Source: Thermoanaerobaculia bacterium | Lineage (GTDB): Bacteria; Acidobacteriota; Thermoanaerobaculia; Multivoradales; JAHEKO01 | Direction: 5' to 3' | Length of the DNA: 46,819 nt | Assembly (NCBI GenBank): GCA_033720955.1 | Contig: JAWWBN010000002.1 | Span: 1-46,819, forward strand | In this document: one piece after another, positions 3,001 to 28,181 of the stretch | Numbering within the stretch: the stretch's first letter is position 1 | Layout: every line of letters starts with the position of its first letter | Translations under genes and position numbers: made by a program | The notes under the pieces: model-generated | Database searches by the model: none | What the model saw: the letters and a program-made list of their open reading frames with translations, nothing else | What the model was told of the DNA's origin: nothing

Positions 3001-3134
3001 CCGACGAGGACGTCGCGGAGTTCACCGGCACGCTCGGCGACGCCACTTCGGGGACCATCGTCCTGCTCCTGGACCTCACCTCGCTGGGGATCTCCTCGAG
3101 TGAGGACGTGGGCTCGCTGGAGGTCTTCGACTAG
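3..3134 (+). CDS. Large secreted Cys-rich repeat protein, 5' end off-window (propeller-like N part, DDGxFCNGxExC repeats, FDGSDVGL repeats)
   Basis: The frame stays open from nt 3 through the first ATG at 36 to TAG 3132-3134. Nearly every third codon position is G/C. The translation has an RWGDYSS motif, eight xFC(N/D)GxExC units and three CTDDSCDEVNDVIVN units. I recognise no family beyond the repeat architecture. Confidence 0.85.
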   Translation, partial: AQGIDSASWWPMQRLVYRNFGTHETLVGTWTVDVLAAGDRAAPRWFELRDSGGWTLYQEGTHSPDAIHRWMPSIAMDNSGNIAIGYSRGDGSNFPSIYYATRETGDALGTLQAEAQMYPGSGSQTHSAARWGDYSSMELDPADDCTFWYTNEYLATTGSAPWRTRVGVFSIPGCGGPPVPTFNVSCSPSAFTIQDGASDSSTCTVAEVNGYVGTVSLSCPGAPAGIGCTFVPTSGSPTFNSALTIDVAGGTAAGSYNFDVEATDGAITKTWGLAVDVIPAGSNGPQDAVYDPGLGAPKCAVAGSECDSTSLVNSRDSLSPAEPNQPNTLDGCADGTSGTYHNDESNDRIVVKTLDGGNFTEGDLVQIDATVWAWSTGSSDALDLYYAADANSPSWQFITTIVPASGGAQTLSAQYTLPVGSLQAVRAQFRYLGSASSCTTGSYNDHDDLVFAVEAPGGGCTVDADCDDGLFCNGAEVCNAGACEAGTPPACDDGLFCNGAESCNETTDTCDPGTPPACDDGEFCNGVESCNESTDSCDPGTPPACDDGEFCNGVESCNETTDSCDPGTPPDADDGVACTDDSCDEVNDVIVNTPNDANCDDGQFCNGSETCDPILDCQAGADPCPGQSCDEVNDQCVACGVDADCDDGAFCNGAEVCNAGTCEPGTPPGADDGVACTDDSCDEVNDVIVNAPNNANCDNGQFCDGAETCDPVLDCQAGTPPSVDDGVGCTDDSCDEVNDVIVNAPNDANCDDGQFCNGSETCDPVLDCQAGTDPCGGGACDEVDDICLPSGDPVYWLSFRNNTSVPGVGTVTEDDLVSYDAGTGLWALEFDGSDVGLSGFEIDGFARLPGGDLLLSFTGAGTIAGLSVDDSDVVRFTPTSLGSTTSGSFTLYFDGSDVGLSSNGEDVDAIGLDASGNLIVSTIGNFSGNGASGADEDLFVFNATSLGANTAGSFTRLFDGSDVGLGGSGAADIDAAELTSAGTLLFSTVGSFSAGGASGADEDVAEFTGTLGDATSGTIVLLLDLTSLGISSSEDVGSLEVFD
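1380..2363 (+). repeat. In-frame coding repeats for Cys-rich modules, including three near-identical 144-bp copies (1719-1862, 2013-2156, 2172-2315)
   Basis: Direct reading: the string gacgacggcgtcgcctgcaccgacgacagttgcgacgaggtcaacgacgt recurs with only a few substitutions. Shorter 78-81 bp units encode CDDGxFCNGxESCNExTDxCDPGTPPA. Confidence 0.85.
2437..3131 (+). repeat. Degenerate coding repeats of about 65 aa, each ending in FDGSDVGL (C-terminal domain of the same protein)
   Basis: FDGSDVGL occurs three times (LEFDGSDVGLSGFE, LYFDGSDVGLSSNG, RLFDGSDVGLGGSG). Each is preceded by a (D/E)-rich, TSLG, (T/S)(A/S)GSF segment. Confidence 0.5.
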
Positions 3135-11968: not shown

Positions 11969-12592
11969 ATGATCGTGAAACCCGCTATCGACCGATCGCA
12001 GCCGGGGCTCATGGAAGAGGAACGCTCTCTGCTGGACCGCGTATCGCGTGGCGACGACGAGGCGTTCGCCGAGCTCTTCTACCGCTACCAGCCGCGTGTC
12101 GCCCGCTTCGCCGCCCGGATGACCCGCCGGCCGGACCTGGTCGACGAGATCGTCAACGACACCATGGTGGTGGTCTGGCGTCGGGCGGCCGCCTTCCGGG
12201 GCGACTCGCGGGTCTCCACCTGGATCCTGGGCATCGCCTACCGAACGGCGCTGAAGCGGCTGCGCCGGGCTGCCCGCCACCTGAGCGAAGCGCTCCCCGA
12301 GGATCTTCCCCAGCCGGCGGACGACGACCCCGAGGCGCACGCCCGCCGGGTCCAGAGCCGTGCGCTCGTCCGACGCGCCCTCGCCCGCCTGAGCCCACCG
12401 CACCGCGCGGTGGTCGAGCTGGCCTTCTTCGAGGAGCTCAGCTACACGGAGATCGCCCGCATCGTGGGCTGCCCGCCCAACACCGTCAAGACCCGGATGT
12501 ACCACGCCCGTCGCAACCTGAGGCGGATCCTGCGCATTCTGGATGCCAAGCCCGCCGTCCAGAGGAGCCGAGCCGATGACCCCTCCTCGTGA
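11969..12592 (+). CDS. ECF-type RNA polymerase sigma-70 family factor
   Basis: Region 2 (FAELFYRYQPRVARFAARM, DLVDEIVNDTMVVVW) and the region 4 HTH (LSYTEIARIVGCPPNTVKTRMYHARRNL) are both present. The true start could be the internal ATG at 12011. Confidence 0.9.
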   Translation: MIVKPAIDRSQPGLMEEERSLLDRVSRGDDEAFAELFYRYQPRVARFAARMTRRPDLVDEIVNDTMVVVWRRAAAFRGDSRVSTWILGIAYRTALKRLRRAARHLSEALPEDLPQPADDDPEAHARRVQSRALVRRALARLSPPHRAVVELAFFEELSYTEIARIVGCPPNTVKTRMYHARRNLRRILRILDAKPAVQRSRADDPSS

Positions 12593-13202
12593 CCCGAGTC
12601 CACGCCCGAACCACGACGCCTGCCACGAGCTTCTGCCCTGGCTGGTGAACGACACCCTCGACGACGCGGAGCGCGCTGGCGTGGAGGCGCATCTGGAGGT
12701 CTGCGAGAGGTGCGCTCGGGAGCGCGCCGAGCTCGAGAGCGTCGCCGCCATCGTCCGGGAGGACGCCAGGAACGAGACCGCCGGAGATCTCGAGACGGTC
12801 CGCGCGCGCACCTCGCGGGAGCGGCCGCTGCCTCACGCGGCGGCCCGGTCTCTGCGGTGGGCGGTGGCGGCCCAGGCCGCGGTCATCGTGGCCCTGCTGG
12901 CGGCTTTTCTCTGGCCGGCGGCGCAGGCGGAGCTCCCGGCCTTCCGAACCCTCTCCGACCCTGCCGCCGTCGCGCCCGTCGCTCCGGCGCTGAGGGTGGT
13001 CTTCGACCCCGACGCCAGCGTCGGCGAGGTGACCGAGTTGCTCGCCGCCGCCGGAGCCGAGATCGTGAGCGGCCCGAACCGGGCCGGCGCCTTCGCCGTG
13101 CGGCCGAGCGATCCCGGCGCCAGGCTGTCGGAGCTGGCCGAGCGTCTTGGCGCGGAGCCGCGGGTCCGGCTGGTGGAGCGGGCGGTCGGCCCCACCCGCT
13201 GA
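12576..13202 (+). CDS. Anti-sigma factor (zf-HC2 type, single-pass membrane)
   Basis: The ATG overlaps the 3' end of the sigma gene by 17 nt. It has the H-x3-C-x2-C motif (AHLEVCERCARE) and one hydrophobic segment (WAVAAQAAVIVALLAAFLW). Confidence 0.75.
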   Translation: MTPPRDPSPRPNHDACHELLPWLVNDTLDDAERAGVEAHLEVCERCARERAELESVAAIVREDARNETAGDLETVRARTSRERPLPHAAARSLRWAVAAQAAVIVALLAAFLWPAAQAELPAFRTLSDPAAVAPVAPALRVVFDPDASVGEVTELLAAAGAEIVSGPNRAGAFAVRPSDPGARLSELAERLGAEPRVRLVERAVGPTR

Positions 13203-16145: not shown

Positions 16146-17807
16146 TCAGTCGACGTAGCCCAGGGTGCGCAGATGCTGCTGGCGCGCCGCCAGCTCCTCC
16201 GGGGTGAGCGGCTGCAGGGAGTCGGGCTGTTCGCTCTCGACCGCGGCTCCTCCGGGCTGGATGTAGGGGACCTCCCAGAAGGCGAAGCTCCCGGCGTCGC
16301 CGCCCGGCGAGGGCGACAGGATCTCCGTCGCCACGCACAGCTCCACCCACCGGAGGGAGTGCTCTGCGAGATCGAGGTTCCAGCCGCGCCAGGTGCCCCC
16401 GGTCAGGTCCACGGTGTCCGCGAAGAGCTCGATCGGCCGATCGGAGCCCTCCGGCTGCAGTCGGAGGGCGAACCGCACCACGAGGTCGGCGTGGCCGGCG
16501 CGCAGCGCGTTGCGCTTGGCCAGCCCATAGCGGACGGTGGCGACGGCGTCGGCGGGCAGCAGCAGCCGGCGGCAGTCGTCGTTGGCGGCCAGGAAGGTGC
16601 GCCGCCGGCCGTCGATCACGACCTCCCTCAGGCCGCCGCGGGGCGTGAACTGGTAGACGCGCTTGTCCACGTAGCGGTAGCCGCGCGGCGGCGTCACGGG
16701 AACCGGCCGCGGCGGCGTTCGGGCGGCGAGCTGCGGGCAGTGGTCCCACGGATAGCGGTGGGGCCGCACCGGGTCGAACGGCGGCGTCCACTGCCAGACG
16801 ATCTCCCCCTTCCGGTCCACCTCGAAGACGCGACCGCCGCGGGTGGAGCCGATCAGGACGTTGCCGTTGGGCAGAGCCTGCTGGACGCCGCCGGTGGGCG
16901 AGAAGAAGTCGTCCGAGCGGTAGGCCCAGACGACTTCGCCGGTGGCCGGCTCGATCTCCAGGATCTCGCTCCGGCGGTAGGTGTACCGGTTGCCGTAGCC
17001 GTTGTCGAAGAGCTGGATCCGCCCCGCCCCGGGCCAGCCCGAAGGGGTCATCAACGCCTCGTGCTGCTTGTCGAGCTCGTGGTCGAAGAACCAGACGGGC
17101 TCCCCCGTCTCCCGGTCGATCACGAAGACGGCGTGCAGATTGCGGGCGCTGATCAGCAGGTTGCCCGGCCGGAAGCGCCGGTCGCCGGCGTCGTGGTGCC
17201 GGTTCTCGGGAAGCACCTGGACCGAGTTGACGTGGGTCGCGTCGCCCACCAGCTCGACGCCACGCTCCTCCAGCCACTCGGCCAGGTGCTCGCCGGCGCG
17301 CCACTCCCAGACGATCCGGCCGGCGGGGTCGATCTCGACCAGACGATCGGCGGGGTCGCCGTCGGCGGCTGTGATCACGAGAGTGTTGCCGTTGTCGAGC
17401 CGCCGCAGGTCGTGGTGGGGGAGGAGGTCCTCCCGCATCCAGCTCCAGACCGGCTGGCCCTCCCAGTCGTACTCGACGACGTCGCGGCCCAGGCCGATCC
17501 CCAGAAGATGGCCGTCGGGCAGCAGCCTCACCCGCGACTTGACCCGCGCCTCGGGCCAGGCGTGGACGACCCGGCCGTTGGCGTCGAACAGAATCGGCAC
17601 CCGTCGCCAGGAGAGCCCCAGGTTGACTCCGTACCAGGCCCGCTCCGGGTCGTGGATCGCGACCCAGTCGGGGGAGCCGAATCGCTCCCACGCCGCCGGC
17701 GTCTCGGGTCCGGGCCCCCCGGCTCCGCCGCCGCACGCGAGCGAGCAGGCCAGGGTCAGGGCGACGGGAAGAGACCGGATGGGTCCGGCGGAACGAGCTC
17801 TCCGCAC
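16146..17807 (-). CDS. Arylsulfotransferase (ASST)-like beta-propeller lipoprotein
   Basis: Lipobox LTLACSLAC. ASST-like segments are present: HHDLRRLDNGNTLV, THVNSVQ, LLISARNLHAVFVIDRETGEPVW, IQLFDNGYGN. The start is GTG with no clear RBS, so the start is uncertain. Confidence 0.7.
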   Translation of the reverse strand: MRRARSAGPIRSLPVALTLACSLACGGGAGGPGPETPAAWERFGSPDWVAIHDPERAWYGVNLGLSWRRVPILFDANGRVVHAWPEARVKSRVRLLPDGHLLGIGLGRDVVEYDWEGQPVWSWMREDLLPHHDLRRLDNGNTLVITAADGDPADRLVEIDPAGRIVWEWRAGEHLAEWLEERGVELVGDATHVNSVQVLPENRHHDAGDRRFRPGNLLISARNLHAVFVIDRETGEPVWFFDHELDKQHEALMTPSGWPGAGRIQLFDNGYGNRYTYRRSEILEIEPATGEVVWAYRSDDFFSPTGGVQQALPNGNVLIGSTRGGRVFEVDRKGEIVWQWTPPFDPVRPHRYPWDHCPQLAARTPPRPVPVTPPRGYRYVDKRVYQFTPRGGLREVVIDGRRRTFLAANDDCRRLLLPADAVATVRYGLAKRNALRAGHADLVVRFALRLQPEGSDRPIELFADTVDLTGGTWRGWNLDLAEHSLRWVELCVATEILSPSPGGDAGSFAFWEVPYIQPGGAAVESEQPDSLQPLTPEELAARQQHLRTLGYVD

Positions 17808-17909: not shown

Positions 17910-18545
17910 ATGTCGGAGCCGACCCACGTCACGATCGTCAGCGAGCGGGGCGAGATCGCGGGTCGTTTCCACGCCGGCGCCCCGGCGATCGTGCCGCGCG
18001 GCGCCGTGCTGGCGGTGGGCGGATACACCGGGGGCTTCGAGGGGCCGTCCGGAGCCTACGGGGTTCTCGGCGACACCCTTCCGCAACGGGGCATCCAGCT
18101 CCTACGTCTCGACTACAGGATCAAGCGCGCGCCCGGGCCGGTCGAGGAGGGCACCTGCGATGTCGCCGCCGGCATCGACTGGCTGGCGGGCAGAGGGGTG
18201 GAGAAGATCGTGGCGGTCGGCTTCTCGTACGGTGGAGCCCTGGTGGTGCGCGCGGCCCTCGACTCCGCGAGCGTCGTCGGCGTGGCGGCGCTGGCCACCC
18301 AGACCGCCGGGATCGGCGACGTCCGGCGTCTGGCGCCTCGTCCGCTGCTCCTGGTTCACGGCACCGCCGACCGAACCCTCCCGGCCCGTCTCTCGCGCCA
18401 GGTCTACGAGCGCGCGGGAGAGCCGCGGGAGCTGCACCTGCTCGACGGGGCCGGCCACTCGATGGCGGAGCGACGCGACGAGCTGCTGGAGATCCTCACC
18501 GGTTGGATCGACGGCGTTCTGCCGGCGCGCGAGCGGCGGCTCTGA
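17910..18545 (+). CDS. Alpha/beta hydrolase (dienelactone-hydrolase-like)
   Basis: This is the only coding-looking part of the 997-aa ORF. It has the nucleophile elbow GFSYGG and LLLVHGTADRT followed by GAGHS. Confidence 0.8.
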   Translation: MSEPTHVTIVSERGEIAGRFHAGAPAIVPRGAVLAVGGYTGGFEGPSGAYGVLGDTLPQRGIQLLRLDYRIKRAPGPVEEGTCDVAAGIDWLAGRGVEKIVAVGFSYGGALVVRAALDSASVVGVAALATQTAGIGDVRRLAPRPLLLVHGTADRTLPARLSRQVYERAGEPRELHLLDGAGHSMAERRDELLEILTGWIDGVLPARERRL

Positions 18546-18578: not shown

Positions 18579-19910
18579 TCACCAGCGCGCGACCGCCTGG
18601 TCCACGAACCAGCGGAGCCGGGCCAGGACCTCGTCGCCGTCCACCTCGCCGAGGCGGAACCGCCGGGCCAGGCTGAAGGCGGTGACCTCGAGCTGGGAGC
18701 CGTTGGGGAACGGCAGGCAGGTGCCGTCCCGGATCTCCGGCCACGACTTCTTGCGGGCGGTGAAGGGGGCCGGCACCCGCAGCCGGTCGTCGGGTCGAAC
18801 GAAGTCGGGATCCTCGGGCCAGATGGCCCCGCCCCACTTCATCGTCTGACCGCGCACCAGGCTCAGCAACGGATTCTCGAAGCGCTCGTGGAACTTGTAG
18901 TGCCCGAAATCGACGAGCTGCGCCCGCGCCGGGTCGTCGTCCGACTGGCGGGCGATCTGGATGTTGACGCCGTCGAACTGCCGTGGCCCTCCGCTCGTCC
19001 GACCCACCCGGCGCAGCTCCTCGATCTGCTCGTCCCGCAGCTTCTTCTTGACCGTTCCCGCGTAGCGCACCTCGAGCTTGCCGTCGCTCTCCTTCAGGGC
19101 GAGCGTGGTGCCGGGCGTCGAGGAGGTGATGCCGTAGTTGCGGAGAAGCAGCTCGATCTCCAGGTAGAGAGCCTGCAGCTCCGACCCGAGAGTCGGCAGC
19201 TCGATCGCCTTGACCGCCCGCCGGTGGGCGCGCCGCACCTGTATCGCCGCCGGTGAAGACTGGCTCGGGTCGGGCCGCCATTTCATGTCGAATCCGGTGT
19301 CGAGGACGGCGTAGGTCGGCACCGAGGCCAGGTCGGGCAGGGCGCGGTGAAAGATCTCGTCGATCACCCACTGCGCGACCATGTCCAGGAACGCGCACCC
19401 CAGGTAGTGGAGCCCGTTGGTGTGGGCGCCGGCGAGCGACGGCCGCGCGTTGGGCCCGACGCCCGTTCCCTTCAGGTCGAGCAGCCCGCCGGCGCCACGG
19501 CCTCCGGCGCCCGGCACCGATCGAACGAGGGCCCGCCCGTAGCGGGTAGGGCGATAGGCGAGCGCGGGCCCGCCCGTCTCGATCGGAGTGTTGACCCTGG
19601 TCTGGCCCGCCTGGCTGCGGGAGATCACCGCCGCGTGTCGGAGCAGCCAGATGTCGAGGAGCTTGCGGATCTCCCCGCGGCGGGCCGCGATGTCGAGCCG
19701 CCGCAGGCGGGGGTGGCCTTCGAGGAGCCTCCGGTCTCGAAGGTGTGGAAAATCGTGCTGAAGGAGACCGTAGTCCGCGAAGACCACTCTCGCTCCCTCG
19801 AGCCGCAACACTTTCTCTTTTCGAAGCCCTCCATCTTCCAGATGGTCGGGAGCTCGCAGCAGCGGTCCGGCGGAGACCCGCTGCGGGATGGTCGAGTCGA
19901 CGCCTCGCAT
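18579..19910 (-). CDS. Hypothetical protein with SelO/protein-kinase-like motif string
   Basis: The ATG at 19910 is the first start after the AT-rich intergenic stretch. Motifs LLDLKGTGVGPNARP..HTNGLHYLGCAFLDMVAQWVIDEIF, FDGVNIQI and LVDFGHYKF follow the order LKGAG / HGVMN / DYG seen in SelO-type pseudokinases. No SD is visible and the resemblance is weak. Confidence 0.7.
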   Translation of the reverse strand: MRGVDSTIPQRVSAGPLLRAPDHLEDGGLRKEKVLRLEGARVVFADYGLLQHDFPHLRDRRLLEGHPRLRRLDIAARRGEIRKLLDIWLLRHAAVISRSQAGQTRVNTPIETGGPALAYRPTRYGRALVRSVPGAGGRGAGGLLDLKGTGVGPNARPSLAGAHTNGLHYLGCAFLDMVAQWVIDEIFHRALPDLASVPTYAVLDTGFDMKWRPDPSQSSPAAIQVRRAHRRAVKAIELPTLGSELQALYLEIELLLRNYGITSSTPGTTLALKESDGKLEVRYAGTVKKKLRDEQIEELRRVGRTSGGPRQFDGVNIQIARQSDDDPARAQLVDFGHYKFHERFENPLLSLVRGQTMKWGGAIWPEDPDFVRPDDRLRVPAPFTARKKSWPEIRDGTCLPFPNGSQLEVTAFSLARRFRLGEVDGDEVLARLRWFVDQAVARW

Positions 19911-20009
19911 TTTGTTTGACGAATGTTTCGTACTGCTGATATCATGAAACGCAACAATCCTGTAAAAGGCTCCTGAGCTCAGGAGCAAAACGAAGAGAGA
20001 GGCGGTTCC
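19911..20009. promoter_or_regulatory. AT-rich divergent control region: sigma70-like promoter for the + gene plus an 18-bp perfect palindrome
   Basis: TTGACG (19916-19921), an 18-nt spacer, then TATCAT (19940-19945). The perfect palindrome GCTCCTGAGCTCAGGAGC (19969-19986) is flanked by A-runs. RBS agagagagg precedes the ATG at 20010. The palindrome tgatatca overlaps the -10 element. Confidence 0.45.
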
Positions 20010-20471
20010 ATGCGCAACCGAGAAGTAGAGCCCTCTTCGACCTCCCCGGAGGTCCACCTGCCCACCGTGCTGGAGCTCGCGCTCCAGGATGCCCATCAGG
20101 AGGCGGCGTCGCGCGCCCGAGTCGCGGCGCGGGCCCTCGGCCTGTTCGCCGCCGGAGGCAGTGCCGAGGAGAGCGCCGAGGAGAGCGCCGAGACAGGGGC
20201 CGAGGAGAGTGCGGAGGAGAGCGCCGAGAAGGGCGCGGAGGAGAGCGCCGAGGAGAGTGCCGAGGCGAGCGCGGAGAAGGGCGCCGAGGAGAGCGCCGAG
20301 TACAGCGCCGAGAAGGGCGCGGAGGAGAGCGCGGAGGAGAGCGCGGAGTACAGCGCCGAGTACAGCGCCGAGAAAGGCGCCGAGGAGGGCGCGGAGGAGA
20401 GCGCCGAGAAGGGCGCCGAGGAGGGTGCCGAGGAGAGCGCGGAGTACAGCGCCGAGAAGAGCGCCGAATAG
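20010..20471 (+). CDS. Acidic tandem-tetrapeptide repeat protein, (A-E-x-S/G) x25.5, after a 51-aa unique N-terminus ending AAGGS
   Basis: ATG with an RBS and a candidate promoter. In this frame all repeat codons are GCS GAG NNS RGY, which is the genome-typical GC3 pattern. The +1 frame gives (PRRA)n using AGG/AGA Arg codons, which is atypical here. Confidence 0.7.
   Translation: MRNREVEPSSTSPEVHLPTVLELALQDAHQEAASRARVAARALGLFAAGGSAEESAEESAETGAEESAEESAEKGAEESAEESAEASAEKGAEESAEYSAEKGAEESAEESAEYSAEYSAEKGAEEGAEESAEKGAEEGAEESAEYSAEKSAE
20163..20468 (+). repeat. 12-bp tandem repeat, 25.5 copies (GCS GAG NNN RGY)
   Basis: Counted directly. The units are AEES x11, AEKG x5, AEYS x4, AEEG x2, and one each of AETG, AEAS and AEKS, plus a terminal AE. 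Synonymous variation (gcc/gcg, agc/agt, ggc/ggg/ggt) is scattered among the copies. Confidence 0.95.
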
Positions 20472-20492
20472 CGTGGATCCCGACCAGGTGCG

Positions 20493-20915
20493 CTAGGTGC
20501 GCGATGCTGGCGCGTCGGGGTCGGGTGACCAGAGCTCCAGCAGGTTGCCGTCCGGGTCGTAGAAGTAGTACGAGAGGGCCCGCATCCACTCGAGCGGTGT
20601 GGGCCCGAATACGTCCACCCCGGCGGATCGCACTCTCGCGAGGGCCACGTCGAGCCGCGAGCGCTCGACCTCCAGGGCGAAGTGGACGGGACCCCATCGC
20701 GGCGCCGGTCCCAGCGGCGAGTGCTCTTCGAAAAGAAGGCTTCCGGTGTGGAGCGCCAACCGCTGCTTCCGCTTGCCGTCGCGGACCAGAAACCAGGCCC
20801 ACGAGTCGTCGGGCTCGGACTCCGGCCGCAGGCCGACGACGTCTCGGTAGAAGGCGGCGGCGGAGGGCACGTCGGAGACGATCAGAACGATCTCGGAGAT
20901 GCCCGAGACGGTCAT
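20493..20915 (-). CDS. VOC family protein (glyoxalase/bleomycin-resistance/dioxygenase fold)
   Basis: 140 aa. ISEIVLIVSDVPSAAAFYRDVVGL, HFALEV and YYFYDPDGNLLEL are the typical paired beta-alpha-beta-beta-beta motifs. Its ATG overlaps the upstream stop as ATGA. Confidence 0.85.
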   Translation of the reverse strand: MTVSGISEIVLIVSDVPSAAAFYRDVVGLRPESEPDDSWAWFLVRDGKRKQRLALHTGSLLFEEHSPLGPAPRWGPVHFALEVERSRLDVALARVRSAGVDVFGPTPLEWMRALSYYFYDPDGNLLELWSPDPDAPASRT

Positions 20916-22334: not shown

Positions 22335-23117
22335 ATGAGCTTCCTTCGAGCCTTCGAAGAGGACGGCATCGCCTTTCCGATTCCGGTTCTGGATGCCGAC
22401 GAGGTCCGCAAGTACCGCTCGGCTTTCGAACATCTCGAGCTCCTGCTGGGCGGCAAGAAGCAGAACCTCTCGACCGTCCACCTGCACTTCGACTGGGCGC
22501 GCGAGCTCGTCGCGCATCCCGCCGTGCTCGACGCCGTGGAGCCGCTGCTGGGACCGGACCTTCTGGTGCTCTCCACCCTGATTCTGAACAAGCACCCGCA
22601 CGACCCCGCCTTCGTCGGCTGGCACCAGGACGGCACCTACTGGAATCTGCACAGCGCCCCCACGGCGTCGGCCTGGATCGCCCTGACCGACAGCACCCGG
22701 GCCAACGGCTGCATGCGCGTGATCCCCGGGTCGCACCGGGAGACCATGCTCCCCCACGAGTGCACCTACGCCGAGAACAGCCTGCTCGGCCGCGGGGAGC
22801 AGGTCGCAGCGGAGGTGGACGAGAGCCGCGCGATCGACGTCGAGCTCAGGGCGGGGCAGATGTCCATCCACCAGAACGCCATCCTCCACTCGTCGCCGCC
22901 GAACGGGTCCGACCACCGTCGGATCGGCTTCATCATCCGCTTCGTCACCCCGGAGTTCGCGCACGCGACGGCGCCGGTGCTCCTGGCTCGAGGGCGCGCC
23001 GAGGGGGACCGCATGGAGCTCTGGGAGGCTCCGCCGCCGACGGACGTGAAGCGGGCGATCGCCGAGCGCGAGGCCTACGTGGAGGCGATGGCGGCGAAGC
23101 CGGCCGAGAGCCGGTAG
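22335..23117 (+). CDS. Phytanoyl-CoA dioxygenase (PhyH) family Fe(II)/2OG oxygenase
   Basis: GWHQDGTYW (H-x-D), the CMRVIPGSH region, and the distal His in IHQNAILHSS. 260 aa. RBS ggagg. Confidence 0.88.
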   Translation: MSFLRAFEEDGIAFPIPVLDADEVRKYRSAFEHLELLLGGKKQNLSTVHLHFDWARELVAHPAVLDAVEPLLGPDLLVLSTLILNKHPHDPAFVGWHQDGTYWNLHSAPTASAWIALTDSTRANGCMRVIPGSHRETMLPHECTYAENSLLGRGEQVAAEVDESRAIDVELRAGQMSIHQNAILHSSPPNGSDHRRIGFIIRFVTPEFAHATAPVLLARGRAEGDRMELWEAPPPTDVKRAIAEREAYVEAMAAKPAESR

Positions 23118-23132: not shown

Positions 23133-25139
23133 TCAGCAGGCGCCGGGGTCGGTAGCCGGGGCGCCGTGCGCCGGCGCTGACGATCCGATGGTCACGAGGT
23201 CGACGTCGGGCGCGAACCCGAGCTCGAGGTCGAGGTCGTGGAGGATGTCCTCGCGGCACATCATGATCGCTCCCAGCCGCACCGCCCTGGGATCGGGCTC
23301 CGCGGCCTCGAACTGCTCGGGGGGCACGCCGTTGATCTCGGCGCAGACCTTGTCGGAGAGCTCGTTGAGGAACTCCAGGTGGTACTCCTCCGGCTTGTCG
23401 AACTCCGCGCCCCAGCGCACCAGGAAGTCCACGAAGACCCGGGTGATGGCGGGGTGGAGCTGATCGGGGTCGTCCAGGTTGCGGTGCAGCCGGCGGTAGA
23501 CCGGCGGCAGCAGAGACCGGAGCTCGCGTCGGAAGGCCAGTGGCACCGGCGCCTTGAATGACAGCGCCGTGGGCTCGTAGGAGCCCGAGCTCTCGAGCTC
23601 GATCTGGTGGGCCAGCGACGGCACCATCTGGTGGCTGAGCAGACGCCGGATGTGGGCCTGCATCGTGAGGAGGATGGTCAGTCGGTGCCAGAGCGACGGC
23701 GCCACCTCCCGGCAGACGTCGGTGAGCTCGTCGATGGCGTGGCGTGCGCGGTCGTTGAGCAGTGAGCGCCGCTCCAGATTGTCGATCAAGTCCCGGCGGC
23801 TGCGGTCGGAGAACTGCGGCTCCGGGATCTGCGGCGGCCGCTCGAGCAGCTTCATCCAGCCGGTGTTGCGCTTTTTTATGTTCTTCCAGCGGAAGAGATC
23901 TACGTATAGATCGCGATAGCCCTCCATCAGCTCCACCCGGGTCATCAGACGCGGAATGGTGTTGAAGTAGTAGCCGTCGAGGTTGTCGGTGAAGCGCCCG
24001 CGCTCGAAGGCACCGGCCTCGGTGACCACCTGACCGCGCTCGACCATCTTGCGCCAGAGGGGAGTGCCGTGCGGGGCCTGCAGGATGGTCAGCGCCGGAA
24101 CGGGGATCGAGGCGGTCTGGTGGAACTCGAAGAGGCGCCCGAAGGTGCTCGAGTCGTCCTCGTCGAAGCCGATGATGGTGTTACCGCGCAGGGCGATGCC
24201 GTAGGACATCATGCGGTGCGCCTCGGCCACCAGGTCCTTGTTGAGGTTCTGCTTCTTGTTGATGTTCTTGAGCGTCTCGGGGTTGATCGACTCGATGCCG
24301 ATGAACAGGACGGTCATACCCCCGTCGGCGGCCAGCTCCAGAAGCTCGGGATCCTTCGACGCGTTGGTGGTGGCCTGGGTGGAGAACGAGATGGTGTGCT
24401 CGAGCTCGCGGTTCAGGTCGCGCATGCCTCGCAGCAGCTCCTTGGTGTACCGCCGGTCGCCGACGAACTCGTCATCGGTGATGAACGCCGTTCGGAACCC
24501 GCGGCGGGCCAGCTCTCGGATCTCGTCGAGAACCCGCTCCACCGGCTTGTGCCGCATCTTGCGCCCGAAGAGATAGATCACGTCGCAGAAGTCGCAGTCG
24601 AAGGGGCAGCCCCGGGTGGTCTGGACCGTGCCCATCGCGTAGGCACTGCAGTCGATGCCGTCCCAGTCGGGCGCCGGGCTGTCCTCCAGCGACGGCTTGG
24701 TGATCTGGCGGTACTCGTCGCGGTGCTCGCCCGCTGCGAGATCGCTCAGAAACTCCGGCCAGGTCTCTTCGGACTCGCCGATGAAGAGCACGTCGAAATG
24801 CTCGCGGTACGAGCGCGGGTGGACCGAGACGCCGGGGCCGCCCACGCCGGTCAGGACGCCTCGCTTGCGAAAGACGGAGGCGATGCGGATGGCGTGGTCG
24901 ATGTGGCCGGAGTAGCCGGTGACGCCCACGAAGTCGTAGTCGCGGTCGAAAACCGTCTCGTCCGTGATGCGACCCTTCACCGGCTCGTCCCAGAGGTCCA
25001 CGTGCACGTGGCCGGGAGTCAGCGCCTTCAGGGTGGACAGGGTCAGCGGCGCCAGGTCGGCGACGACCTCGTGTCGAGCGTCCATGGTGGTCCAGCCGCA
25101 GGGTATCCGGTACTCGGGACCGACGATGAGGACGTTCAT
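23133..25139 (-). CDS. B12-binding domain radical SAM protein with a long C-terminal (DUF4070-like) extension
   Basis: RBS ggagg lies 4 nt before the ATG. It has an N-terminal Rossmann-like B12-binding region (DFVGVTGYSGHIDHAIRIA), the radical SAM cluster motif CPFDCDFC, and a helical tail of about 250 aa. Confidence 0.92.
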   Translation of the reverse strand: MNVLIVGPEYRIPCGWTTMDARHEVVADLAPLTLSTLKALTPGHVHVDLWDEPVKGRITDETVFDRDYDFVGVTGYSGHIDHAIRIASVFRKRGVLTGVGGPGVSVHPRSYREHFDVLFIGESEETWPEFLSDLAAGEHRDEYRQITKPSLEDSPAPDWDGIDCSAYAMGTVQTTRGCPFDCDFCDVIYLFGRKMRHKPVERVLDEIRELARRGFRTAFITDDEFVGDRRYTKELLRGMRDLNRELEHTISFSTQATTNASKDPELLELAADGGMTVLFIGIESINPETLKNINKKQNLNKDLVAEAHRMMSYGIALRGNTIIGFDEDDSSTFGRLFEFHQTASIPVPALTILQAPHGTPLWRKMVERGQVVTEAGAFERGRFTDNLDGYYFNTIPRLMTRVELMEGYRDLYVDLFRWKNIKKRNTGWMKLLERPPQIPEPQFSDRSRRDLIDNLERRSLLNDRARHAIDELTDVCREVAPSLWHRLTILLTMQAHIRRLLSHQMVPSLAHQIELESSGSYEPTALSFKAPVPLAFRRELRSLLPPVYRRLHRNLDDPDQLHPAITRVFVDFLVRWGAEFDKPEEYHLEFLNELSDKVCAEINGVPPEQFEAAEPDPRAVRLGAIMMCREDILHDLDLELGFAPDVDLVTIGSSAPAHGAPATDPGAC

Positions 25140-25261: not shown

Positions 25262-26353
25262 TCAGTTGCGAATCTTCAACAGATAGCCGCGGGGATTCCA
25301 GGTAACCAGAAACTTCTCCCGCTCCGGATCCATCCGGAAGCGCGGGTCCTCGGCGAGGAAGTCGTCGATCGCCTCCATCGGGCCCGGCCCGAAGTCCGGC
25401 TTGGTGGGATGGCCGTTGAGGTTCGAGTCTTCTACGATCAGGTAGCTGCCCGGGGTCACCAGGTCGGCGTAGGCCTTGAGCTCCGCGTAGACGTGATCGC
25501 GACGGTGATCGGAGTCGAGCACGACGAGCACCGTGGCGCCCTGCGGAATCTCGGCGCGCACCCGGCGCAGCGTCTCCTCGGCGGTGGAGGGTCCCAGCAG
25601 GAAGGTGATCTTCTCGTGCTCCGGCAGCGGGTCGCTGTAGGGCTGCAGGTCGATGCTCACCACCCGGCCCCTGCCGACCAGCTCGCAGATATGGGCGAAG
25701 TAGAGGGCGCTGCCCCCCGCGCAGGTCCCGGTCTCGACGATGAGATCGGGCCGCAGCTCGGTGATCATCTCCTGGTAGACCCACATGTCGAGCGGGCACT
25801 TGAAGGTCGGAAATCCCATCCAGTAGGTCTCGCTCCAGGTCTTGCCCAGCAGGTAGGCGTCGAAGTACAGCTTCTGAAAGTCGCGGATCAGACGCCGGAT
25901 GCGGTCCGAGTCGAGCTCGGGGCTGGTGCGATGGTTCGGAATGAAGGTCTCGATGTGGCGATCGGGGAGGGTGAGAAAACGGGCCTCCGTCACCGCGCCG
26001 TCGCACAGCGCGAGCCGCAGCGTGAAGTCGCTGGCGAGCGGCCCGCCGTTCTCGCCGCTCCAGGTCATGCGACCCAGGAGCACCACCTCGCCGTCGCCAA
26101 TGACGGAGCGGGTCAGCTCCACGGACTCGGGGGTGCGCCGCCGGTGGACACGGTCGAAGAAGCCGCGCACGGCTTCGCGACCTTCGTGCCGCGTTCGGCC
26201 GAACAGCTCGGAGTGCTCGAAGACGCCGTCGCCCTTCCAGTCGGTGAGCCAGCGCACCCCGGGGTCGAGCAGCTCCAGGAGGGGCGTGACGCCGGCCTCG
26301 GGCAGGCTCTCGAGAGCCTGGGCGGCGCGGTGGGCCAGGTCGTGGACGTCCAT
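25262..26353 (-). CDS. SnoaL/NTF2-like domain fused to a CmcI (cephalosporin hydroxylase family) class I methyltransferase
   Basis: The ATG at 26353 is preceded by gagaggag. The C-terminal half (WMGFPTFKCPLDMWVYQEMI, IVETGTCAGGSALYFA, VVLDSDH, YLIVEDSNLNGHP) matches the CmcI family. The N-terminal 125 aa or so has an NTF2-like pattern. The rest of the 551-aa ORF overlaps the sulfotransferase gene and is rejected. Confidence 0.85.
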   Translation of the reverse strand: MDVHDLAHRAAQALESLPEAGVTPLLELLDPGVRWLTDWKGDGVFEHSELFGRTRHEGREAVRGFFDRVHRRRTPESVELTRSVIGDGEVVLLGRMTWSGENGGPLASDFTLRLALCDGAVTEARFLTLPDRHIETFIPNHRTSPELDSDRIRRLIRDFQKLYFDAYLLGKTWSETYWMGFPTFKCPLDMWVYQEMITELRPDLIVETGTCAGGSALYFAHICELVGRGRVVSIDLQPYSDPLPEHEKITFLLGPSTAEETLRRVRAEIPQGATVLVVLDSDHRRDHVYAELKAYADLVTPGSYLIVEDSNLNGHPTKPDFGPGPMEAIDDFLAEDPRFRMDPEREKFLVTWNPRGYLLKIRN

Positions 26354-26388: not shown

Positions 26389-27138
26389 TCAGTCGTCCAG
26401 CGAGGTCATCTCGCCCTCGAACTCGGTGCCGGCCAGCGCACGGGCGAGCTCGTCGTAGTTGGCGATCAGGTCGCGCAGGTCGCGCGAGTTCTGCTTGACG
26501 CTCCGCGGCTCGAGCGGCTCCGCCACCGGCGTCTGGCCCAGGAAGCGCAGCAGCCGGTTCTGCACCGAGAGCTCGCCCAGCTCCTCGTAGCTCGCCTCCG
26601 CCCAGCTCTGCCCGTCGGCCTCGAGGGACGAGCGGATCTCCCGGTAGTAGGCGCGGTCGAAGTCGACGTGGTCGCGGAAGCGGGCGGGGTCGACGGCGAC
26701 CCGGGGCCGCTCGGCGGCGAGCTCCTTCTCGCTGTACGCCTCCCACTGTCCGAGGCGCTCGGAGATCAGCGACGAGACGAAGGTCTTGAGGCGGTTGCGC
26801 CGCCGCAGCACGATCTTCTTGAGCCCCGCGTCTCTCAGCAGACGGGGGAAGACCGCCTCGTTCTGACGGTGGGTGAACTTGAAGCCGACGCAGGGCCGGC
26901 CGAAGGGGTGCTCCCACAGCCTGTCGAGAAAGGCCAGGGGATCGGCTTCCCTTTCTTCGACGCTTCCCAGCCGGAAGCCGCTCTGCCGCAGGTCGAGCGC
27001 CACCCAGACCCCCTTGGGGTTGAAGATCTCGTGGTGGCAGAGGATGGCCGGATGGGAGTCCAGCATGGTGCAGAGCATGTTGCTGCCGGAGCGGGGCGCG
27101 GCCAGGATGACGAAGCGCTCGAGCTCCGCGCTCACCAT
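26389..27138 (-). CDS. PAPS-dependent sulfotransferase family protein (Stf0-like)
   Basis: It has the 5'-PSB loop AAPRSGSNML and a 3'-PB-like RRRNRLKTFVS. Its ATG (27136-27138) overlaps the upstream stop (27132-27134) within ATGGTGA. Confidence 0.8.
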   Translation of the reverse strand: MVSAELERFVILAAPRSGSNMLCTMLDSHPAILCHHEIFNPKGVWVALDLRQSGFRLGSVEEREADPLAFLDRLWEHPFGRPCVGFKFTHRQNEAVFPRLLRDAGLKKIVLRRRNRLKTFVSSLISERLGQWEAYSEKELAAERPRVAVDPARFRDHVDFDRAYYREIRSSLEADGQSWAEASYEELGELSVQNRLLRFLGQTPVAEPLEPRSVKQNSRDLRDLIANYDELARALAGTEFEGEMTSLDD

Positions 27139-28181
27139 TGGAGGACGACTCCCAGAGTCCCGGCTGGGTCGTCGCTCAGGCCGCGGTAGCCGCACGCGGC
27201 GTCGGCCGCGCGGAGACGGTGGGTGATCAGCTCGCGGGTGGTGAGCTCACCCTGGGCGAGCATCTCCAGGAACAGCTCGCCGTGGCGGCGGGAGGTCCAC
27301 CGGTCGTCGAGCGAGCCCTCGGCCGGATGGGAGAAGCCGTGCGCTCCGAGGATGGTCAGGCTGGGTCGGTTGCAGAGGTCGTGGAAGTCGAAGTGGCTGG
27401 GACCGCGGGGGCTGCTCAGGAGGAGAAACCGCCCCTGCCGCCGCACCAGGCGGGGCGCGGCGGCGAGCACCGTGGGCTCTCCCGTGGCCTCGATCATCAC
27501 GTCGACGCCGGAGGCGCCGTGGCGGTCGCGGAACCGCCGGCGCACCTCGCGGTCGCGAAGGTCGCCCGGGAAGCCGATCAGCCGTTGTGACGGGGGCAGT
27601 CGGGCCATGCGGGCGGGCGTCACCTCGAACGCGTAGATCCGGCGCACGCCGATCCGCAGGCAGAGGCGGCAGACGAGCTGGCCGAGGACCCCCAGGCCGA
27701 CCACCCCCACGGTCTCGCCCCAGGTCACCGCAGCGCGGCGCAGGCCGTTCATCGCCACCTTCCCCAGGGTCGCGAAGACCGCCTCCTCCGGCGAGACGCC
27801 CTCCGGCAGGGCGGCCACGCGGTCCTCCGGCGAGAGCGCGAAGCGCTGGTGGCCGCCGTGATTGTGGACCGTGCGGCCGATCCAGCCCGGGTCCACTCCC
27901 TCGCCGACCGCCTCGACCCTGCCGACGTTCGAGTAGCCGGCCAGCTTGGGGTAGTGGGTCAGATCGCCCCAGCGCTCGCCGGTGGCCGAGGCGTGGAGAA
28001 GGGTCAGCTCGGTGCCGGCGCTGATCAGCGAGCGGACGGTTCGCACCAGGACCTGCCCGGGCTCGGGGGAGGGAACGTCGAGTGCGAGCGTCTCCACGAC
28101 GCCGGGCGCCGTGAAGGCCACGGCCAGGTTGCCGCGGCCCGATGGCGCGTCGCGAGAGACATCGTCTCGAGGCGAAGACAT
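27132..28181 (-). CDS. MDR-superfamily (zinc-type alcohol dehydrogenase-like) oxidoreductase
   Basis: GroES-like N domain (PGQVLVRTVRSLISAGTE..GYSNVGRVEAVGEGV) and a Rossmann motif (VGVVGLGVLGQL). No SD precedes the ATG at 28181, so the start is uncertain. Confidence 0.8.
   Translation of the reverse strand: MSSPRDDVSRDAPSGRGNLAVAFTAPGVVETLALDVPSPEPGQVLVRTVRSLISAGTELTLLHASATGERWGDLTHYPKLAGYSNVGRVEAVGEGVDPGWIGRTVHNHGGHQRFALSPEDRVAALPEGVSPEEAVFATLGKVAMNGLRRAAVTWGETVGVVGLGVLGQLVCRLCLRIGVRRIYAFEVTPARMARLPPSQRLIGFPGDLRDREVRRRFRDRHGASGVDVMIEATGEPTVLAAAPRLVRRQGRFLLLSSPRGPSHFDFHDLCNRPSLTILGAHGFSHPAEGSLDDRWTSRRHGELFLEMLAQGELTTRELITHRLRAADAACGYRGLSDDPAGTLGVVLQW

Follow-up and report, generated by a model that had tools for sequence, protein, structure and literature searches.

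To our knowledge, SelO/YdiU is encoded only by a stand-alone gene and acts as a protein AMPylase/UMPylase with many substrates; its C-terminal redox tail carries selenocysteine (Sec) in the eukaryotic proteins. SidJ of Legionella has a kinase-like active site that adenylates the side-chain carboxylate of a Glu in SdeA, followed by the formation of an isopeptide bond (PMC6858067). Here, we analyzed a 46,819-nt stretch of DNA from a Thermoanaerobaculia bacterium (GenBank assembly GCA_033720955.1, contig JAWWBN010000002.1, positions 1–46,819 of the forward strand; hereafter the window), which comes from a tidal-flat metagenome, has a GC content of 72%, and carries a gene for a predicted protein-kinase-like enzyme in divergent orientation to a gene for a Glu-rich tandem-repeat peptide. 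Our tentative reading is that the two form a conserved enzyme–peptide module in a cluster resembling those of RiPPs (peptides that are synthesized ribosomally and modified post-translationally), and that the Glu residues of the repeat would be modified in an ATP-dependent manner. The central features, with the evidence for each in brackets, are as follows:

18579–19910, minus strand: predicted protein-kinase-like enzyme, cytoplasmic, 443 amino acids (aa), uncharacterized family, nearest solved structures SelO/YdiU (open reading frame (ORF), homologues, AlphaFold2, Foldseek)
19911–20009: divergent control region, 99 nt (GC scan, promoter and palindrome search)
20010–20159, plus strand: first 50 aa of the repeat peptide, leader-like and with LGLFAAGG at the end (ORF, weak alignment)
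20160–20471, plus strand: 26 A-E units in tandem, after which comes the stop codon (Tandem Repeats Finder, codon variation)

The repeat peptide and its pairing with the enzyme

Homologous loci were collected by scanning one genome per GTDB species, and in 15 of the 33 loci found a Glu-repeat peptide gene adjoins the enzyme gene, usually divergently and within 300 bp, in at least four phyla (the paired groups are Acidobacteriota, Myxococcota, Bacteroidota, Rhodothermales, and Entotheonella). ORFs that were strictly AE-rich (at least seven [A/S/T]-E within 40 aa, six frames, 652 kb) numbered eight, all of them within 1.6 kb of an enzyme gene (p ~ 3.5e-6 under uniform placement). The pairing of the enzyme with a repeat gene is not due to chance, and it is old, because the peptide-bearing loci are scattered over the family tree of the enzyme. 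The co-occurrence across genomes that the initial annotation had asked for was thus found, and of the enzyme–substrate pair it had proposed, the functional pairing stood, in the form of this conserved divergent arrangement, while the phosphorylation or AMPylation of Ser in the array did not. In addition to the closest orthologous cluster (locus L001, treated below), the peptides encoded beside the enzyme were:

L011 (Deltaproteobacteria metagenome-assembled genome, MAG) and L016 (Thermoanaerobaculia MAG): (TAE/AAE)n peptide
L008: AE/SEEQAF-rich peptide
L013 (Candidatus Entotheonella): AE-rich peptide
L031 (Minicystis rosea): (SAE[RI]x)n peptide with 55 AE
L014 and L032 (two Acidobacteriota): (GGAE[ED]xPxG)n peptide
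L015: (GTTEIRC)n peptide
L022 (Rhodothermales MAG): (ERExA)n peptide
L030: (GGASAEVGGAQR)n peptide
L009, L010, L028, and L038 (four Saprospiraceae loci): (SFHAAEx)n or (S/G)AE-type repeats

The association holds in one direction, from enzyme to peptide, and AE periodicity alone is not diagnostic, because in a reverse test none of the 80 loci (0/80) fetched from metagenome contigs with the DNA pattern (GCNGARN6)x6 had the enzyme. Many of these 80 arrays are (AEGR)n within proteins of about 300–340 aa, and the others are unrelated low-complexity arrays. The (AEGR)n arrays occur in gut and other metagenomes (L052, L064, L077, L083, L097, L106, L109, and others) in proteins that may be Rpn/YhgA-like nucleases.

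The window peptide (20010–20471, plus strand) has 153 aa, namely a non-repeat N-terminus of 50 aa followed by 26 A-E units (Tandem Repeats Finder: period 12, 25.4 copies, 20163–20467). All but one of the units (25/26) are full A-E-x-(S/G) tetrads with invariant Ala and Glu; the fourth position is Ser in 17/25 and Gly in 8/25, and Tyr occurs in four units. The (AExS)n formula of the initial annotation therefore held for the Ala-Glu unit, while its Ser had to be widened to Ser or Gly. Within the array, the Ala and Ser/Gly codons vary in their last nucleotide, which is synonymous, and the third codon (E/K/Y/T/A) varies throughout, a pattern that supports translation in the A-E frame. Two further frames are open across the array, the RRAP frame (20089–20496, plus strand) and a minus-strand ORF, and both were rejected since the variation fits the A-E frame only. 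Tyr is found in the array among acidic residues (SAEYSAE), the surroundings in which Tyr O-sulfation usually takes place.

The N-terminus of the window peptide aligns weakly with the leaders of the L011 and L031 peptides, and the three possibly have a motif E(V/L)HL(P/E) ... LG(L/V/I) in common. No Pfam or NCBIfam model matches the window peptide, and none was found for nine peptides of other loci, which were scanned against NCBIfam only. A database search with the repeat peptide gave a single match (P0363), which adjoins an RPE65 gene and was discarded as unrelated low-complexity sequence. The (SAE[RI]x)n array of Minicystis rosea (L031, 8850–9959, minus strand) has weak, sub-threshold matches to pentapeptide-repeat families and might fold as a pentapeptide-repeat beta-helix.

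As the initial annotation had it, the two start codons are 99 nt apart across an AT-rich spacer: the count is exact, the spacer has 45% GC as compared with 72% for the window, and it contains the lowest-GC 99-nt stretch of the 46.8 kb. A predicted sigma70-like promoter (TTGACG-18-TATCAT, 19916–19945, plus strand, 10/12, extended -10) faces the repeat gene. A perfect 18-nt palindrome, GCTCCTGAGCTCAGGAGC, lies at 19969–19986 between the predicted -10 element and the ribosome-binding site of the repeat gene. This palindrome folds into a hairpin of 7 bp and could be an operator. As a whole, the fold of the 5' untranslated region of the repeat gene did not reach significance (z = -0.98), Rfam had no significant match to the intergenic region, and no RNA-seq runs with the window sequence were found.

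The closest homologue of the enzyme, at 60% identity, is encoded in two Thermoanaerobaculia MAGs (L001/L002; L001 is assembly GCA_044867135) in a fully syntenic cluster. Its 86-aa partner peptide in L001 is M(GAE[RK])21, i.e., after the initiating Met it consists only of G, A, E, K, and R, with no Ser, Thr, Tyr, or His, and it has no leader, the repeats beginning directly. The gene for this peptide has a strong ribosome-binding site, a promoter-like TTGACC/TAATAT pair, and heavy synonymous codon variation. Since the compared enzymes of the two clusters are 60–81% identical, it is very likely that they perform the same chemistry, and together with the composition of the L001 peptide this leaves (G/S)-A-E as the only feature that the window and L001 substrates can have in common. 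The S-x-E motif that had been suggested as a Fam20C-like acceptor, and direct AMPylation of Ser, Thr, or Tyr as the conserved reaction, accordingly lose their basis. Over 17 peptides, Ala precedes 262 of the 399 Glu residues, and apart from Glu-Glu pairs the remainder follow mostly Ser, Thr, Gly, or Pro; the residue after Glu is unconstrained and the repeat periods range from 3 to 12 aa. Most of the other peptides hold some Ser or Thr, and the position of Ser relative to Glu is not fixed across loci. All that the paired peptides have in common is Glu with a small residue, mostly Ala, before it, and Glu is the only universal functional group left in them. The enzyme probably recognizes the repeat itself, because the L001 peptide is leaderless.

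Kinase-like fold and relation to SelO

The mechanical minus-strand ORF spans 18579–20096 (505 aa). The ATG at 19910, which gives 443 aa, was preferred because 117 database homologues span 96–100% of the shorter length and the extra 62 codons would enter the low-GC spacer and the repeat gene. No match to the enzyme was obtained in Pfam and NCBIfam scans or in phmmer and profile searches against PDB sequences; every named homologue is annotated as hypothetical and none of the 117 has a Pfam domain. An exhaustive profile search with a threshold of E ≤ 1e-3 returned 987 clusters (50% identity), 501 of them with E ≤ 1e-30, and on this count the enzyme is a member of a large uncharacterized family. 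The N-terminus has no hydrophobic signal sequence. Natural fusion partners in the family are a GT4 glycosyltransferase and a condensation domain of non-ribosomal peptide synthetases (NRPSs), and the C-terminal extensions of the longer members checked carry no fused repeat tails.

Residue conservation was counted in a family alignment of 72 sequences. Invariant positions are Q100, R120, P121, Y124, G125, R126, K147, G150, G166, Y200, R226, A228, R231, E253, R257, G260, D334, F344, and P373, a set rich in Arg. Near-invariant are E/D176 (65/72), H229 (71/72), E/D313 (70/72), N316 (63/72), and Q318 (71/72). The three motifs that the initial annotation had picked out in SelO-type order on a 443-aa minus-strand protein are all present, and the Lys and Asp chosen by eye, K147 and D334, are each kept in 72/72. 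Because of this invariance and the near-constancy of Q318 and N316, we regard the motifs as selected features rather than chance strings. The motif blocks (minus strand) are:

19527–19541: Y124-G-R126-A-L, beta1–beta2 loop, Y124, G125, and R126 invariant (by-eye motif alignment and regular-expression control)
19452–19484: LLDLKGTGVGP, aa 143–153, with beta3 Lys K147 and G150 invariant, and P153 (family alignment)
19218–19238: VRRAHRR, end of beta5 and hinge, R226, A228, and R231 invariant, H229 in 71/72 (family alignment)
18954–18977: FDGVNIQI, aa 312–319, candidate catalytic-loop equivalent with E/D313, N316, and Q318 (family alignment)
18891–18917: LVDFGHYKF, aa 332–340, DFG-like, with invariant D334 (family alignment)

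The AlphaFold2 model of the enzyme, made with the family alignment as input, reached a predicted local distance difference test (pLDDT) of 92 and a predicted template modelling score of 0.92. Its elements run beta1, beta2, beta3 (K147), a long helix (E/D176), beta4, beta5, helices, a loop with E/D313, N316, and Q318, and D334, and this modelled order is that of the protein-kinase fold. The model thus shows the bilobal kinase-type fold of the protein-kinase-like superfamily, with an N-lobe of five strands and helix C and a C-lobe that holds a catalytic loop and a DFG-like loop. The Lys of beta3, the acidic residue of helix C, and the Asp for metal binding are all conserved in the family. In a Foldseek search of the PDB, the top eight matches of the full-length model were all SelO/YdiU, with E-values between 1.5e-3 and 1.8e-2 and probabilities as high as 0.99; Rio2, PKR, ULK1, and CK1 came next. 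With a core-only model (aa 95–375, pLDDT 91), about 40 of 50 matches were protein kinases and YdiU appeared at a probability of 0.98. SelO/YdiU is the closest structural neighbour of the full-length model, and the kinase-like, SelO-type fold expected by the initial annotation was in this way borne out, with weak scores.

In a by-eye alignment, five motif blocks are collinear between the enzyme and E. coli SelO. The block (Y/D)GR(A/G)(L/I)(V/L), in which Y124-G-R126-A-L of the enzyme matches G-D-G-R-G-I-L of SelO, precedes the beta3-Lys block by 21 aa in the enzyme and by 20 aa in E. coli SelO. The beta3-Lys block itself, (L/V)KG(A/T)GxxP, places K147 opposite K107. It is followed by R226-x-A-H-x-R231 against R170-x-A-P-S-H-x-R177, by a G-(V/I)-N block against G-V-M-N, and by D334-F-G-x-Y-x-F against D256-Y-G-x-F-x-F. 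A single regular expression for the five blocks matched the window enzyme, 118 of 120 SelO sequences, and 23 of 72 family members, and among about 6600 background ORFs it matched members of the enzyme family only. R170 and R177 of E. coli SelO are reportedly the counterparts of the Arg pair by which the flipped ATP is held at its gamma-phosphate, so that AMP is transferred, and the apparent conservation of the pair in the enzyme would favour nucleotidyl over phosphoryl transfer. The catalytic pair D246-N247 of E. coli SelO is not conserved, the enzyme family having (E/D)313-G-x-N316-x-Q318, and Q318 may occupy the position of the catalytic Asp if the gapped alignment is right. The redox tail of SelO is also missing, the enzyme ending in FVDQAVARW and E. 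coli SelO in LEVSCSS.

Several results weigh against a close relation to SelO. The Foldseek scores are weak (E from 1.5e-3 to 0.5, TM-scores about 0.25–0.33), and the relationship must therefore be remote. At the level of sequence, membership of the SelO family was not supported: the enzyme does not match PF02696 (SelO/YdiU) in a Pfam scan at E ≤ 0.1, a profile of its family has no match among PDB sequences, and hhalign of the family against E. coli SelO or a SelO alignment was not significant (probability < 1%), with a SelO alignment too shallow for a fair profile test, the search having returned only members at least 79% identical. The best local hhalign match, LKGTGVGP with LKGAGLTP, was likewise not significant (E 0.087). 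The five-block alignment and the regular expression were devised after both families had been seen, and we take the expression as support and not as proof, because it was built with both in view. Taken together with the model, our verdict is that the enzyme represents a family of its own within the kinase-like superfamily, and that SelO is the nearest relative known. Another hhalign match, of AYRPxRYGRALV (aa 118–132, 19515–19559) with the extreme C-terminus of SelO, YVSRPPDWGKRLEVSCSS, had a probability of 0.4%, was not significant, and is probably a chance likeness.

Gene neighbourhoods

The remaining genes of the window cluster are:

17910–18545, plus strand: alpha/beta hydrolase (DLH / S9 / S33-like), 211 aa, convergent with the enzyme gene and kept in the orthologous cluster
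20493–20915, minus strand: glyoxalase/VOC-fold protein, 140 aa
20912–22246, minus strand: protein of about 444 aa, 69% identical to its L001 orthologue, start codon uncertain (sub-threshold 2-oxoglutarate (2OG)-Fe(II) oxygenase match)
22335–23117, plus strand: PhyH-family Fe(II)/2OG dioxygenase with an H-x-D motif (Pfam/NCBIfam)
23133–25139, minus strand: B12-binding radical SAM enzyme, 668 aa, 81% identical to its L001 orthologue
25262–26353, minus strand: SnoaL-like and CmcI-type methyltransferase, 363 aa

The PhyH-family protein is of the hydroxylase type because of its H-x-D motif. The protein of about 444 aa has no above-threshold Pfam match and no match among PDB sequences. In L001 the order is zinc-dependent alcohol dehydrogenase, a 249-aa protein, SnoaL/CmcI methyltransferase, B12-radical SAM enzyme, PhyH, a 431-aa unknown protein, VOC, then the divergent 86-aa repeat gene, the enzyme, and the alpha/beta hydrolase; identities to the window are 60% for the enzyme, 81% for the B12-radical SAM enzyme, and 69% for the unknown protein. 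As in RiPP clusters, a small peptide gene is thus flanked by the enzyme and by VOC, PhyH, B12-radical SAM, and methyltransferase genes, and this set is syntenic in L001/L002. A leader-like N-terminus is present in the window peptide, the L001 peptide has no leader, the alpha/beta hydrolase is the only protease candidate of the window cluster, and no exporter was seen in it. An ATP-grasp Pfam domain is also absent from the window cluster, which speaks against an assignment to the graspetides. Downstream of the orthologous cluster, L001 has 41-nt tandem repeats (about 10 + 6 copies, 11970–12680) that overlap a called 298-aa gene (11997–12893) without a Pfam domain.

The neighbours of the enzyme change with lineage but are of kinds typical of the tailoring of peptides or natural products. 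PhyH is the commonest partner family of the enzyme (eight loci, including the window, L001, L014, L030, L032, and L038), and glycosyltransferases and deacetylases recur. Beside two PhyH genes, L041 and L014 hold several genes for glycosyltransferases and one for a Capsule_synth protein. In Minicystis (L031), a radical SAM-SPASM gene directly follows the peptide gene, with an APH kinase, a deacetylase, and GT28 also present; a 3225-aa ORF without a Pfam domain lies after the enzyme gene. L042 combines APH and HopA1, a pairing known from class V lanthipeptide clusters, with GT4, a methyltransferase, phosphonate genes, and an NRPS. In the Eremiobacterota a gene for the class II lanthipeptide synthetase LanM (DUF4135 and LANC_like; L017 6537–9527 and L027 6543–9530, both minus strand) is divergent from the enzyme gene, and no LanA-like gene was identified in these loci. 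The Sorangium homologue (L003) lies between PCP, C, A, and GT2 genes on one side and genes for GTP cyclohydrolase II, thymidylate kinase, and orotidine monophosphate decarboxylase on the other. In Saprospiraceae and Rhodothermales, a TonB receptor, SusD, Peripla_BP_2, FecCD, and an ATP-binding cassette (ABC) importer are found near the enzyme, and the Saprospiraceae have tandem enzyme paralogues, two in each case (L009 9620–12390; L010/L044 7450–10283), downstream of the importer and adjoining a PRTase_3 gene, a context that hints at a metallophore-like or nucleoside-like product.

Some further observations concern the flanks. The window cluster is bordered by a sulfotransferase-like ORF at 26389–27195 (minus strand), whose match to Sulfotransfer_3 falls short of the curated cutoff, and by a beta-propeller resembling arylsulfotransferases at 16146–17807 (minus strand). 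A RibBA-type GTP cyclohydrolase II and a second PhyH gene (30209–31384 and 31425–32486, both plus strand) are about 10 kb from the enzyme, and GTP cyclohydrolase II is within 10 kb of the enzyme in Sorangium L003 and L008 as well. Paired paralogues of about 140 aa, with the C-terminus FKDGSGR..YF.REFF and no Pfam domain (L041 920–1802; L167 7135–7958), were placed by clustering near the enzyme in four loci (L011, L026/L167, L028, and L032/L041), and L005 has a differently built pair of about 155-aa proteins with signal-like N-termini upstream of the enzyme. At the edge of the window, a 1032-aa ORF (36–3134, plus strand) contains 81/159/162-nt tandem repeats at 1397–2318 with Cys-rich units (C-D-D-G-x-F-C-N-G-x-E-x-C...) and resembles the Cys-rich repeat proteins of myxobacteria.

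Possible chemistry and comparison with known systems

In the mechanism that we propose, the enzyme would bind the acidic repeat directly, as the leaderless orthologous peptide suggests, and would hold ATP in the SelO orientation. Each repeat unit would be modified at its invariant Glu, the gamma-carboxylate being activated as an acyl-adenylate or acyl-phosphate and then captured by a neighbouring Ser, Thr, or Lys side chain or by an external amine, e.g., a de-N-acetylated amino sugar, which the recurrent pairs of glycosyltransferase and deacetylase might supply. Further tailoring of these Ala-Glu units would fall to the co-conserved B12-radical SAM enzyme, PhyH, methyltransferase, VOC, and 444-aa proteins, and the alpha/beta hydrolase may trim or release the products. 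That the enzyme acts directly on the repeat peptide seems to us fairly probable, while chemistry at the Glu carboxylate specifically, for which we argue by analogy, is possible but doubtful. Equally doubtful is the widest version, a new class of modified repeat peptides in at least four phyla whose class-defining, SelO-like enzyme would adenylate or phosphorylate every Ala-Glu carboxylate. On the other side of the scale, Glu could be a recognition element rather than the acceptor, an obvious amine-forming or ligation partner is absent from the window's own cluster, and about half of the homologous loci (e.g., Sorangium and several Flavobacteriaceae loci) have no repeat peptide.

This last point implies that the family may have additional, non-peptide substrates, and it is also the starting point of an explanation in which the direct substrate is not the peptide but a sugar, a metabolite of nucleotide-like type, or an intermediate attached to a carrier; the peptide would then serve as a scaffold or carrier, or be a product in its own right of the same cluster. 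The NRPS-like and nucleotide context in Sorangium, the PRTase gene adjacent to the enzyme in L044 with its TonB/SusD/ABC importer upstream, and the GT4 and condensation-domain fusions agree with it. Nevertheless, the two genes are found close together and for the most part divergent in one phylum after another, with otherwise different neighbours, and the conserved Arg richness of the enzyme suits a polyanionic peptide, though not specifically; we therefore consider a non-peptide substrate unlikely. The absence of any functional link, with the array as a non-coding or spurious tandem repeat beside an unrelated orphan gene, would be in keeping with the many spurious ORFs of high-GC DNA, with the two other frames open across the array, and with AE-period-4 arrays being common elsewhere, as in the 80 metagenome loci that lack the enzyme. 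It is extremely unlikely in view of the codon-position variation, which supports translation, the presence of a ribosome-binding site and promoter, the strong positional enrichment near the enzyme, and an arrangement that is kept in low-GC Saprospiraceae as in high-GC taxa.

Two further explanations retain a hydroxyl as the acceptor. All SelO/YdiU acceptors known to us are Ser, Thr, Tyr, or His, and O-phosphorylation or O-AMPylation of the Ser of S-x-E, or of Tyr, in the manner of Fam20C or SelO, could draw on the Ser and Tyr of the window array and on the Ser or Thr of most other peptides. We hold it to be very unlikely, given that the closest orthologous peptide has none of these four residues despite the similarity of the enzymes, that Gly replaces Ser in 8/25 window units, that the place of Ser relative to Glu varies across loci, that a near-invariant Gln, Q318, would stand at the SelO catalytic Asp position if the gapped alignment is right, and that Fam20 structures are absent from the top 50 Foldseek matches. 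A two-step route, in which PhyH first hydroxylates the repeat (beta-hydroxy-Glu, hydroxy-Lys/Arg) and the enzyme then phosphorylates or AMPylates the new hydroxyl or a sugar on it, would allow O-linked chemistry of the SelO type even where the peptide lacks Ser, Thr, and Tyr, and it gains from the frequency of PhyH, the recurrence of glycosyltransferases, and the single GT4–enzyme fusion. Its order of steps is pure inference, PhyH and glycosyltransferases were not found in the flanks of several annotated peptide-bearing loci, and the window/L001 cluster has no glycosyltransferase at all, which makes this route quite unlikely as well. Modification of the Glu residues thus stays our preferred, if tentative, reading.

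In full-text literature searches, neither SelO-like enzymes within RiPP clusters nor such repeat peptides were found to have been described. We rate the system as RiPP-like peptide modification built on a new kinase-fold family; were the Glu chemistry confirmed, it would come closer to something categorically new. An unannotated family of about 1000 clusters is tied here to a genetically encoded repeat peptide amid natural-product tailoring enzymes, and offers a clean, testable enzyme–substrate pair for an atypical kinase fold as well as a means of mining genomes for what may be a new RiPP-like class, in the under-explored producers Acidobacteriota, Myxococcota, Saprospiraceae, Entotheonella, and Eremiobacterota. 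If our reading is true, it would give the pseudokinase/AMPylase fold a new role and bacteria a new protein modification chemistry, and some lineages may make a glycosylated polyanionic peptide or a metallophore-like product.

Among the described systems, the likeness to Fam20C is superficial and limited to the S-x-E spacing in 17/25 window units, whereas the enzyme has no signal peptide and no Fam20 structural match, and the Ser is not conserved in the orthologous peptides. Graspetides/microviridins (ATP-grasp) and pantocin A (PaaA) are closer in organization, with a small precursor gene beside an ATP-using enzyme, repeated core units, a reactive Glu with Ser, Thr, or Lys near as possible partners, and radical SAM enzymes, hydroxylases, and methyltransferases for tailoring. 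In contrast to these, the fold of the enzyme is kinase-like and not ATP-grasp or E1-like, the repeats are of 3–12 aa with up to about 55 AE units, and the orthologous peptide is leaderless. With SelO/YdiU, the enzyme has in common the kinase-like fold, the best Foldseek matches, and the collinear motifs, but it is without similarity at the level of hidden Markov models, differs in its N-terminal ~95 aa and its C-terminal helical region, lacks the redox tail, and is encoded in biosynthetic clusters beside a dedicated repeat peptide. No SidJ structure is among the top 50 Foldseek matches of the enzyme, whose candidate substrate is, unlike that of SidJ, a dedicated tandem repeat with many Glu, and for which calmodulin dependence is not expected. 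The comparison with SidJ is one of mechanism, and it provides a precedent for how the enzyme might work on Glu: if Glu is the acceptor, the present system would be a second, independent case of carboxylate activation by a kinase fold.

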